This document shows, one piece after another, positions 33,305 through 35,222 of a DNA stretch of 64,000 nt (the first letter of the stretch is position 1; each line of letters opens with the position of its first letter). Origin of the DNA: Planktothrix tepida (GTDB lineage Bacteria > Cyanobacteriota > Cyanobacteriia > Cyanobacteriales > Microcoleaceae); the NCBI RefSeq assembly GCF_904830955.1, contig NZ_LR882970.1; one strand, given 5' to 3'. Made by a program: the position numbers and the translations under genes. The notes under the pieces are model-generated. The model was not told the origin of the DNA and searched no databases. It was given only the letters and a program-made list of their open reading frames with translations.

Positions 33305-33533
33305 GGTTGTGGCCTAAATACTGTAAATCCACTATCTTCTGATACGAATTAGAGTTGTGTGATAGGGATCACGGTCGTGTTGGGGTTTGGGTCAATGGGT
33401 TTGAGAAGAATAATTTTTTAATCAATATAATAGGCTAATGTTCTTTTCTGTTTGAAAATCTATTGGCTGATGTTAAAATCAAATGGGTTTAATTATGTTA
33501 ATCCTCATAAGCCACTAAACATAAAGACCTGAG

Positions 33534-34814
33534 TTGCTTAATAAAATGTGTTTTTTTGTGTTGAGATGTAAATTAATGTTTCAGTCTAGCAAGAAGCTTT
33601 TGGCCATTCTTATCTCAAGCTTATTTATCATCGTTCATTCAGGATTTATAGGAACAGCCGGAGCTTTGGCTAATAGACTCACAGTAACAAATGCTAACTC
33701 ACCGACTGTGATTTTAGTTAGCGATTTTGCCATGCTTAATGATGTTGGTCAATTAATTGAAAAGACGAAAGTAGGATCTCTCAATAAGATTAAAGGCTCA
33801 CAGGCTTTTCTTGATGAACAAGTTCAGCACTTGATGGAAAAGGAAGCTGAAATGGCAGATCATTTAAGTGCTGAAGCAAAAGCTTTGTTAAGTCGGGCCA
33901 ATATTTCACAGATTATTAGTAATATTGGTACTTCAATTGAAGAAAATTTAACTCTTAGTAAAAAAAGTATGCAAGATCTCAGTGATTTTGTTGCTAGCAG
34001 TCAGTTTATCGAAGCCAGTAAAAATGTGTTGGAACAGCAAAATATTGCTAAAGATCGAGTTTTAGAAGAAACGAATCAATTACTCAAAGCGAAGGCAGAA
34101 TTAGGTTTACAAATCCTCAAAAATACTCAAACAACAATGGGGGATACATTAATTTCATCAAAGCAAATCTTAGAGGATGCAAGTAAAGTAACTGGTGATA
34201 AATTGCAGTATAGTCAAATGCTTGTTCAAGACTTTGGCAACAACATTAAGACAATGAATTTTTCAGATATTTCAGCCAAAACTCAATCATTGGTAGATAA
34301 TATCAATATCCCAGTCAATCAACTTATTTTAGACTCTATATCTTTTGCAGGTGAACAATTGCTTGGAGGTAACAAACAACTCCAAAAAGATATGAAAATT
34401 TTTATGGAATCAACTCCAGAAACAATGTGTCAAGCGTATCTGGATATGTCTCAAGGGGTTGATAGCTTACCTTGGAAGACTATTCAAAAAGGTGGAAGTG
34501 CAACATTTACACTATTTCGCTCTATAACAGCTGCTTCAGCGGCTGGTGCAGGAGCGTTATCAGGTTATGCCGGAATCGCTTCTACTGTTTCTCAGTTGGG
34601 TTTAGGTGGCTTAACTCAGTTAGTTGCAGGTTGGTTGGGTAGTAGTGCGACTGGAGCCGCTGCTACAGCAGTTGTGACTTCAGCCGTGGGAGGCCCTCTT
34701 GTTATGGGAACCTTATTGGTTGGAGGAACAGGTGCATTTGCTTATGGAAGCTACCGATTTGGTCAATTAATTGCAGGACAGTTAGACGATTGGGCTAAAA
34801 CTAACTGCAAGTAA
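33534..34814 (+). CDS. hypothetical protein: signal/TM N-terminus, long alpha-helical/coiled-coil middle, C-terminal Gly/Ala/Ser/Thr-rich glycine-zipper membrane domain
   Basis: Divergent from the MVP gene (230-bp shared promoter region). The C-terminal about 110 aa: GAGALSGYAGIASTVSQLGLGGLTQLVAGWLGSSATGAAATAVVTSAVGGPLVMGTLLVGGTGAFAYG. No HIP1 site noticed. Confidence 0.45.
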   Translation: MLNKMCFFVLRCKLMFQSSKKLLAILISSLFIIVHSGFIGTAGALANRLTVTNANSPTVILVSDFAMLNDVGQLIEKTKVGSLNKIKGSQAFLDEQVQHLMEKEAEMADHLSAEAKALLSRANISQIISNIGTSIEENLTLSKKSMQDLSDFVASSQFIEASKNVLEQQNIAKDRVLEETNQLLKAKAELGLQILKNTQTTMGDTLISSKQILEDASKVTGDKLQYSQMLVQDFGNNIKTMNFSDISAKTQSLVDNINIPVNQLILDSISFAGEQLLGGNKQLQKDMKIFMESTPETMCQAYLDMSQGVDSLPWKTIQKGGSATFTLFRSITAASAAGAGALSGYAGIASTVSQLGLGGLTQLVAGWLGSSATGAAATAVVTSAVGGPLVMGTLLVGGTGAFAYGSYRFGQLIAGQLDDWAKTNCK

Positions 34815-34844
34815 GTTGATAACATAGCGACTCATTTTTGTATC

Positions 34845-35099
34845 CTAATGGGTTGGCTTAAACTGTTCTAAAATCCCATTGATAAAAGTTTCACCATCAA
34901 GGGGAGGATTTTCTTCAGAGGTGGATACAGCCGCATCGATTTTAGCTGCCACATCTTTAACCCATTCTGCCTCAGCCCTTTGCCATTCATCCAGTAGGCG
35001 CAACGCAGTTGAGATGACTTGTTCAGGGGTTTGATATTTCCCAGATTCCAGTTGAGTTTGAATAAATTGTTCTTGGTCAGAGGTGAGATTAATGCTCAT
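34845..35099 (-). CDS. ParD-like ribbon-helix-helix antitoxin (COG3609 family), orphan
   Basis: MSINLTSDQEQFIQTQLESGKYQTPEQVISTALRLLDEW matches the ParD/CC2985-type antitoxin N-terminus. No toxin ORF follows. The ORF-track start at 35162 is probably too far upstream. Confidence 0.55.
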   Translation of the reverse strand: MSINLTSDQEQFIQTQLESGKYQTPEQVISTALRLLDEWQRAEAEWVKDVAAKIDAAVSTSEENPPLDGETFINGILEQFKPTH

Positions 35100-35222
35100 T
35101 TTTGTGTTGCAACAAGGTTCATCCCTATAATAGCTAACCTGATTTCTAATAATTCCAAGCACAAAAACATAGGGGCAACTTTCGTCACCCCTATGGTTAA
35201 TTATTCATTATTTCACGGATGA

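Follow-up and report, generated by a model that had tools for sequence, protein, structure and literature searches.

Besides the major vault protein (MVP), the described components of eukaryotic vaults are vPARP, TEP1 and the vault RNA. MVP homologs have also been described in bacteria (Oscillatoriales, Myxococcales and Cytophagales), where they are without known partners and where the role of the protein is not known (bioRxiv 10.1101/872010). The present analysis concerns the surroundings of an MVP gene in a stretch of 64,000 nucleotides from Planktothrix tepida PCC 9214 (contig NZ_LR882970.1; hereafter the window), in which MVP stands divergent to an open reading frame (ORF) of 412 codons, ORF412, which is followed on the opposite strand by a gene for a ParD-type antitoxin of 84 residues, ParD84. 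Both ORFs are real genes; the 412-aa product is 100% identical to the hypothetical protein PCC9214_02690 of P. tepida and the 84-aa product is identical to PCC9214_02691. An initial annotation of this DNA had raised the idea that ORF412 might be a vault cargo or a membrane partner of MVP. It is found here that ORF412 and parD are chance neighbors and not vault partners, that their pairing with MVP is an accident of one genome, and that the MVP neighborhood is very likely a lineage-specific patchwork and no functional unit. A tempting lead is thereby removed, since a conserved neighbor would have been a valuable handle on the bacterial protein.

The sole likeness of the locus to the eukaryotic vault components is position beside an MVP gene: the neighbor genes have no PARP, TROVE or WD40 domain in Pfam, the window gave no Rfam match, and no gene is conserved beside bacterial MVP. 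The initial annotation, which had seen no vPARP, TEP1 or vault-RNA-like element nearby, agrees with this. ParD84 is close to the type II ParD–ParE modules (PF03693, PF05016; TIGR02606), as it has the same ribbon-helix-helix (RHH) N-terminus and its orthologs are paired with ParE; unlike in these modules, the toxin gene of the window is down to seven homologous codons, the next gene is convergent, and the TIGR02606 score (39.1 bits) is under the cut-off of 46.2.

ORF412 can be compared with two groups of proteins. The first is that of the SlyB/Pcp-type glycine zipper 2TM lipoproteins (PF05433) and the Gly-zipper_Omp/YMGG families (PF13488, PF13441), which are likewise exported and have small-xxx-small membrane segments, and whose hairpin, like the one predicted for ORF412, starts and ends on the same side of the membrane. 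ORF412 differs from them in having no match to the hidden Markov models PF05433, PF13488, PF13436 and PF13441 even at E<=10, in having a signal of the signal peptidase (SPase) I type with an AxA end and no lipobox, and in its much longer small-residue block (91 aa) with a GAAAT...VGGP motif and a flanking Cys pair. The second group comprises Gly/Ala-rich toxin domains that depolarize membranes, such as those of TspA, TelE, Tse4 and CdiA-CT of EC93, and the colicin hairpins. The glycine-zipper C-termini of toxins of the type VII (LXG proteins TspA and TelE) and type VI (Tse4) secretion systems and of CdiA-CT EC93 are Gly/Ala-rich, marginally hydrophobic and placed after a long helical region, as in ORF412. 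In contrast to these, ORF412 has no detected sequence or fold similarity, no immunity gene and no secretion-system context, and where these toxins have an LXG, PAAR or CdiA delivery domain, it has a Sec signal peptide.

Linkage of ORF412 and ParD to MVP

One genome per species was scanned, which gave 73 distinct MVP loci from 73 other species (labeled L007-L079). At none of the 73 was a homolog of ORF412 or ParD84 found by tblastn in 10-kb flanks, and none of eight ORF412-family contexts (Planktothrix sp., P. agardhii, Crinalium, Laspinema, Limnospira, Microcoleus, Brasilonema and a metagenomic bacterium) contains MVP; nor is any neighbor gene common to these eight. Synteny had been named in the initial annotation as one check on a vault link, and the comparison shows no conserved linkage of ORF412 to MVP, which disposes of the cargo or membrane-partner idea. 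When all flank ORFs within 6 kb of the 73 MVP genes were clustered, no gene family was found to accompany MVP; the biggest cluster is present at 22 loci, on either side of MVP, and its exemplar, an ORF of 2354 aa, is tentatively taken to be a multidomain sensor protein.

The closest MVP locus, from a metagenome-assembled genome (MAG; L061), encodes an MVP of 90% amino-acid identity between the same flanking genes and is without ORF412, ParD and psaB. In other Planktothrix the ORF412 ortholog lies upstream of fba (fructose-bisphosphate aldolase); fba, DUF433 and PIN genes are not in the window. In P. agardhii LR882934.1 (L093 4154-6567) the ortholog is interrupted by an insertion sequence (IS) with a DDE_Tnp_1 transposase gene, on the two sides of which an N-terminal piece (aa 1-227) and a C-terminal piece (aa 226-412) remain; the latter, of 188 aa, has its own annotation as a protein.

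Decay of the parDE Operon

The parD gene of the window is the surviving half of a decayed parDE operon in which parE has been lost from codon 8 on. The RHH domain of ParD84 is recognized by PF03693 at residues 2-39 (25.8 bits against a cut-off of 21, E 1.5e-5), and the protein is 89% identical to Planktothrix ParD proteins with a ParE following. A ParE of 77-99 aa lies 10 nt downstream of ParD in six of the six distinct ortholog contexts examined (orthologs 73-89% identical, from Planktothrix, Lyngbya and an Oscillatoriaceae MAG). When the ParE proteins of three such loci (L080, L084 and L086) were searched against the window by tblastn, the match was limited to residues 1-10 (34835->34806); no other ParE was found in the 64 kb at E<0.05, and there is no intact toxin gene near parD. 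In a three-way DNA alignment, identity extends through ATGAGTCGCTATGTTATCAAC (parE codons 1-7) and then breaks, and the bases that come after codon 7 are the reverse complement of the Cys-Lys-stop of ORF412. The parE truncation thus lies precisely where the ORF412 gene ends, and the stump abuts its stop codon. The residual parE frame runs for 17 codons to 34782, within the 3' end of ORF412 and on the opposite strand, and is translated as MSRYVINLLAVSFSPIV before a stop. The ParD-type RHH antitoxin of the initial annotation (34845-35099, minus strand) and its lack of a cognate toxin gene are therefore both confirmed, and the decayed toxin–antitoxin (TA) pair that it offered as one alternative can now be followed to the base. 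As a clean, base-resolved case of parDE decay to a solo antitoxin, the locus is useful for TA annotation.

ParD84 differs from its Planktothrix ortholog at nine amino acids, all after residue 41 and outside the RHH (dS 0.10, ratio of nonsynonymous to synonymous substitution rates, dN/dS, 0.48). The C-terminal half of ParD-family antitoxins is the toxin-binding part. This distribution is suggestive of a relaxed toxin-binding half in ParD84, with too few changes for a test. On the other hand, the solo ParD might be kept because it still has a function, which could be that of an autoregulating RHH repressor or that of anti-addiction against a ParE encoded elsewhere or arriving on mobile DNA. The intact frame of 84 codons, the 94% conservation of the 51-nt upstream region and an RHH half (residues 1-41) identical to that of the ortholog, with the nine substitutions in the C-terminal half, give this explanation some weight; however, the divergence is so small that the truncation may simply be recent, a dN/dS of 0.48 on nine changes cannot tell relaxed from purifying selection, and the window is without other ParE, so that retention for function is a serious candidate with somewhat less than an even chance. 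ORF412 was also considered as a new toxin partner of ParD and was rejected, because the two genes are convergent and homologs of ORF412 elsewhere stand without ParD.

Origin of the Arrangement

The interval from the OppC-type permease gene (39850-40917) to the HD-GAF gene (28917-30560) is a variable hotspot in this Oscillatoriales group. Three relatives share its flanks (AI-2E transporter and OppC permease, HD-GAF and pterin dehydratase). In the parDE loci of agardhii-type Planktothrix (L080-L083) parD-parE is alone in the interval, in the order permease, ParD, ParE, HD fragment, Pterin_4a, and the HD-GAF gene, intact in the window and in L061, is broken into ORFs of 192 and 85 aa. The order in L061 is permease, DUF29-like gene, MVP, HD-GAF and pterin dehydratase, with HD-GAF 91% and MVP 90% identical to those of the window. 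The P. tepida interval holds the FAD-monooxygenase gene, orf108, a solo psaB, parD, the parE stump, ORF412 and MVP.

The limits of these pieces are visible in DNA alignments. L080 aligns with the window from 42168 to 39838 and then again from 35150; therefore, a 4.7-kb block with the FAD-monooxygenase gene, orf108 and psaB with its terminator is inserted relative to L080. From 35150 the match (93%) continues through the parD promoter, parD and a 9-nt spacer into parE and ends at about 34807. The alignment with L061 runs from 30692 to 33375, 71 nt beyond the MVP start on its upstream side, and no further, and the ORF412 ortholog locus of Planktothrix sp. (L001) aligns solely with 33563-34814. 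ORF412 moved to its present site only in P. tepida. At the junction by which it arrived, parE was lost from codon 8 on, and parD has kept its conserved presumed promoter together with an intact frame.

The ORF412 Gene

The initial annotation gave the ORF as 33534-34814 with 426 aa. Its end at 34814 stands, and its start is most likely the ATG at 33576, giving 412 aa. This ATG is favored over the TTG at 33534 because it is the annotated start, all homologs align from that Met and DNA homology begins at 33563; in the homolog alignment this Met stands right before the hydrophobic core of a signal peptide with an Ala-x-Ala end. With a start at 33576 the divergent spacer between MVP and ORF412 is 271 bp and not the 230 bp given before. 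Compared with its Planktothrix ortholog (68% identical), ORF412 has a dN/dS of 0.30 and is a real gene under purifying selection.

The anatomy that had been proposed, namely a signal-like N-terminus, a helical middle and a small-residue C-terminal block, is borne out. The signal sequence is predicted to be of the n-h-c type with an SPase I-type AxA end, and the protein is predicted to be all-helical. The block at aa 306-396 consists of Gly, Ala, Ser and Thr for 64% and has two charged residues. A glycine zipper is a structural motif and no homology family, defined by (G/A/S)xxx(G/A/S)xxx(G/A/S) repeated in a hydrophobic stretch predicted to be helical; ORF412 has such a stretch, with eleven overlapping instances of small-xxx-small-xxx-small at aa 316-400.

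The different codon usage attributed to ORF412 pointed to the wrong gene. Its GC content of 0.379 and third-position GC (GC3) of 0.271 compare with 0.393 for the window and with GC3 values of 0.24-0.30 in neighboring housekeeping genes, and its distance in relative synonymous codon usage (1.00) is within the window range of 0.40-1.30; the compositional outliers are MVP (GC 0.490, GC3 0.431) and psaB (0.480, 0.501). Horizontal acquisition of ORF412 on compositional grounds was accordingly rejected, as it is MVP that departs from the genome in GC3 and ORF412 does not. The absence of highly iterated palindrome (HIP1) sites from ORF412, also noted before, is correct and uninformative, because zero sites are expected in over half of genes of 1.24 kb (28 sites in 64 kb; expectation ~0.54 per 1.24 kb; P(zero) ~0.58).

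The ORF412 Protein Family

A word-seeded search returned 41 relatives of ORF412, all hypothetical or unnamed and, where a source organism is named, from filamentous cyanobacteria. When 1.84 billion representatives were searched exhaustively with a profile of the C-terminal 151 residues, 79 clusters were found at E<=1e-3; a profile-seeded search gave 123 proteins, some of them short forms (180-212 aa) from Brasilonema, Desertifilaceae, Floridanema and Stigonema. Numerous distant members of 155-190 aa consist of a signal peptide and the C-terminal domain and nothing else. Members differ in the length and sequence of the N-terminal region, which in some has local repeats. The C-terminal domain has a highly conserved core, AGAG.L.GYAG.AS.VS.LGLG..T...A..GSSATGAAATAVVTSAVGGP, in which the GAAAT and GGP residues are invariant family-wide; the motif GAAAT...VGGP lies inside the hydrophobic block. 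In the cyanobacterial branch the block is flanked by two cysteines, Cys285 and Cys411 of ORF412, which are jointly present in 83 of the 83 members that cover both positions; the first is absent in seven members, whose sequences stop short of the position of the second. At ~80 clusters at 50% identity, this small, unannotated family consists of exported proteins whose Gly/Ala-rich hydrophobic domain is unusually conserved, and it merits a domain entry.

ORF412 and its halves gave no match in Pfam, NCBIfam or PADLOC. The C-terminal domain alone found zero Pfam families at E<=10, glycine-zipper and bacteriocin models included, and ten distant family members found nothing in Pfam. A weak PHROG match (phrog_3201, a tail-fiber family; 18 bits, E 7e-4) is taken to be compositional, and a scan of viral contigs showed no ORF412 relatives. 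No fold match to the C-terminal domain was detected; the best hits of a profile search of PDB sequences (E 0.42, serpins and syntaxins) are noise. The AlphaFold2 (AF2) model of full-length ORF412, with a predicted local distance difference test (pLDDT) score of 46.8, was too poor for a fold search, and the model of the C-terminal domain is a compact bundle of seven helices (pLDDT 68, predicted template modeling score, pTM, 0.54).

The sole multi-domain architecture observed in the family is that of P0196, a metagenomic protein of 233 aa without signal peptide, in which a cytoplasmic LRAT/NlpC-P60 domain (PF04970) is followed by the ORF412-type C-terminal domain. Enzymes of the LRAT/NlpC-P60 family carry a membrane anchor at the C-terminal position, which hints that the ORF412-type domain acts as a membrane anchor.

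In the metagenomic bacterium (L090-L092), a non-cyanobacterial member of 164 aa, made of a signal peptide and the domain, is encoded at 6001-6495, directly 3' of type III CRISPR-Cas genes (Csx19, RAMP, Cas6), and several small ORFs without Pfam match come after it. This CRISPR-adjacent context is uninformative for the role of ORF412.

Possible Role of ORF412

ORF412 is most likely an exported envelope or membrane protein, neither a toxin nor a vault component, and its C-terminal domain is, to judge from composition, most likely a membrane-inserting Gly/Ala-zipper module. In the mechanism proposed, the protein would be exported by Sec and its signal peptide cut after ALA, the variable helical region would serve as a spacer, and the domain would enter the membrane as a hairpin or double hairpin, with an even number of helices. 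A disulfide in an oxidizing extracytoplasmic compartment is argued for by the signal peptide together with the Cys pair; the extracytoplasmic location and the disulfide are both probable predictions. The Cys285-Cys411 bond would clamp the two ends of the domain on the extracytoplasmic side, so that both ends of the block would be on the same side of any membrane entered, and the domain would probably self-associate via small-xxx-small packing. It is a tentative and on balance doubtful extension of this that the C-terminal module is a new membrane domain of ~150 aa, with its core motif and, in cyanobacteria, its Cys-Cys clamp, whose Gly/Ala zippers would let it oligomerize, in the envelope, into something like a channel or pore. 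If true, filamentous cyanobacteria and a few other bacteria would have small proteins of a new class that form channels or pores.

Several points weigh against an exported membrane protein that stands beside MVP by chance. Only one window of 19 residues (around aa 375) attains a Kyte-Doolittle value of 1.6, and the block is otherwise at about 0.8-1.0; with such low hydropathy the domain could instead be soluble, as a tightly packed bundle of helices. AF2 confidence is under 50 in the stretch richest in Gly and Ala, membrane insertion is read from composition, and the signal peptide and topology are predictions. Additionally, the absence of ParE and of a second copy of ORF412 holds for the 64-kb window, one stretch of a contig. 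Finally, the new divergent arrangement might couple the expression of ORF412 to that of MVP in P. tepida alone, for which we see next to no chance.

A soluble domain is accordingly the first alternative: a disulfide-stapled, Gly/Ala-rich bundle in the periplasm or the thylakoid lumen would make ORF412 a structural or scaffold protein. The compact seven-helix bundle with its pTM of 0.54 speaks for it, as do a hydropathy that is under the usual transmembrane threshold in most of the block and a very high conservation of the block, which suggests tight, specific packing. Two charges in 91 residues are nevertheless unusual for a soluble protein, and the LRAT fusion puts the domain at a membrane-anchor position, so that we consider a soluble bundle a fair but unlikely rival.

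Still less probable is a secreted pore-forming or bacteriocin-like toxin whose glycine-zipper C-terminus makes ion-conducting pores in the membrane of a competitor or of the producer. Such a role would be consistent with the signal peptide, with a Gly/Ala-zipper composition like that of membrane-depolarizing toxin domains, and with a marginal block hydrophobicity that would permit a soluble state before insertion; moreover, a TA module adjoins a gene of the ORF412 family in two contexts (Planktothrix sp. and the window). TA modules are abundant in cyanobacteria, however, and such proximity is expected by chance. The toxin role is ranked lower because no conserved immunity or export gene was found in the eight contexts and an IS insertion is tolerated. 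In none of the eight does a conserved small neighbor gene qualify as that of an immunity protein, and no dedicated secretion genes are near ORF412; the lack of PADLOC matches, of bacteriocin or glycine-zipper models and of phage relatives, and the occurrence of the same domain as the plain C-terminal tail of an LRAT-type enzyme, also speak against a toxin. The IS insertion in the ortholog of one strain fits either role and is not decisive.

Divergent Spacer and Regulatory Sites

The spacer of 271 bp between MVP and ORF412 is itself composite, with an MVP-proximal part and an AT-rich part unique to this genome (Table 1). Promoter and terminator scans gave counts no higher than those of shuffled sequences, the psaB terminator alone being convincing. 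The spacer has a fold z-score of -0.93, which is not significant, and the same is true of the spacer at 30561-30685 between the convergent HD-GAF and MVP genes (-1.56), which is not alignable with L061. No Rfam family reached gathering thresholds across the whole window, and therefore vault RNA was not detected in it; at E<=1 over 30000-38500 a single snoU83 match (E 0.19), inside an ORF, is noise. The search for small RNAs that the initial annotation recommended in these two spacers thus yielded no Rfam match and no significant fold.

Although MVP and ORF412 are divergent across 271 bp with promoter-like hexamers both ways within 33427-33479, and although no function of MVP in bacteria is known (bioRxiv 10.1101/872010), it is extremely improbable that ORF412 is a vault partner (a cargo, a membrane receptor or an assembly factor) whose expression is coupled to that of MVP through a shared divergent promoter region, given the missing linkage in both sets of loci, the closest MVP locus with no ORF412 and just 71 nt conserved upstream of MVP, the promoter-site counts, the predicted extracytoplasmic location of ORF412 (signal peptide, probable disulfide) against an MVP without signal peptide, the IS-disrupted ortholog in P. 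agardhii and the absence of MVP from the syntenic site of L080-L083.

Distribution of MVP

The hosts of the MVP loci are many filamentous cyanobacteria, Thiomargarita, Ca. Parabeggiatoa, Thiotrichaceae, Anaerolineae, Chloroflexaceae and one MAG labeled Actinomycetota. Identity of MVP remains at 66-78% (best tblastn segment) even across very distant lineages. Because of this identity and because the gene has a GC of 0.49 and GC3 of 0.43, above a genome background of 0.39 and ~0.27, the data suggest that MVP spread horizontally among large or filamentous bacteria.

Other Features of the Locus

The features of the window and of the compared loci are collected in Table 1, where L005 is the Crinalium and L006 the Laspinema locus.

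Table 1. Coordinates of genes, domains and sites in the window and, in the last three rows, in other ORF412-family loci.
Feature	Position	Strand	Remarks
Pterin-4a dehydratase gene (Pterin_4a)	28534-28815	+	Pfam
HD-GAF gene	28917-30560	+	Intact, 547 aa; Pfam
Spacer between convergent HD-GAF and MVP	30561-30685		Three CAGGGAA heptamers and hairpin
CAGGGAA heptamer repeats	30565-30585		Three copies
Hairpin of 10 bp, then U-run	30647-30674	-	Terminator-like for MVP
MVP	30686-33304	-	872 aa; Pfam Vault, Vault_2/3/4, MVP_shoulder, E 2e-66 to 5e-17
MVP 5' proximal region	33305-33375	-	Sole stretch of the divergent spacer shared with another MVP locus (L061)
AT-rich spacer	33376-33562		187 bp, unique to this genome; no match in L061, L001 or any fetched locus
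Promoter-like site	33456-33427	-	9/12; promoter scan
Promoter-like site TTGAAA-16-TAAAAT with TGn	33452-33479	+	10/12; promoter scan
ORF412	33576-34814	+	100% match to PCC9214_02690
ORF412 signal peptide (predicted)	33576-33668	+	aa 1-31; ends ALA, conserved across family
ORF412 variable helical region	33669-34358	+	aa 32-261
ORF412 conserved C-terminal domain	34359-34811	+	aa 262-412, 151 residues
Gly/Ala/Ser/Thr-rich hydrophobic block	34491-34763	+	aa 306-396, 91 aa
parE remnant	34815-34835	-	Codons 1-7, MSRYVIN
parD	34845-35099	-	84 aa; PF03693 25.8 bits, E 1.5e-5
Presumed parD promoter/operator region	35100-35150	-	94% identity over 51 nt to L080-L083 parD upstream
Intrinsic-terminator-like hairpin after psaB	35168-35195	-	12-bp stem and T-run; terminator scan
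psaB	35223-37454	-	PF00223, 1286 bits
orf108	38011-38337	+	
FAD-monooxygenase gene (FAD_binding)	38357-39811	-	
OppC-type permease gene	39850-40917	-	
AI-2E transporter gene	40984-42126	-	
HTH_26 gene, Crinalium	L005 7540-7833		
HTH_31 gene, Laspinema	L006 66-422		
DUF433 gene, Planktothrix sp.	L001 360-590		

A small gene is found divergently upstream of the ORF412 homolog in three of the eight family contexts (last rows of Table 1) and none in the window; these genes could be regulators or a coincidence. The psaB gene is full-length, has a GC3 of 0.50 and no psaA upstream, and lies in the block 35151-39837, which is not in the syntenic loci of L080 or L061; it may be a second, stand-alone copy. 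Its terminator hairpin separates it from parD and is a little beyond the limit of the homology to L080. The FAD-monooxygenase gene has at its 3' end a 48-nt segment (38352-38398) that is 87.5% identical to L061 9812-9859; in L061 this sequence is found in the interval that separates the DUF29-like gene from MVP, upstream of MVP by ~140 nt. The segment may mark an old junction of a ~5-kb block (orf108, psaB, parD, ORF412) inserted relative to L061.

Tandem heptanucleotide repeats resembling short tandemly repeated repetitive (STRR) sequences, CAGGGAA and relatives, recur in intergenic regions of the window (30565-30585, 15613-15632, 28020-28055 and 53183-53207), and a long array of CAGGGAA-type repeats is present in another cyanobacterial MVP locus (L038 3467-3560).

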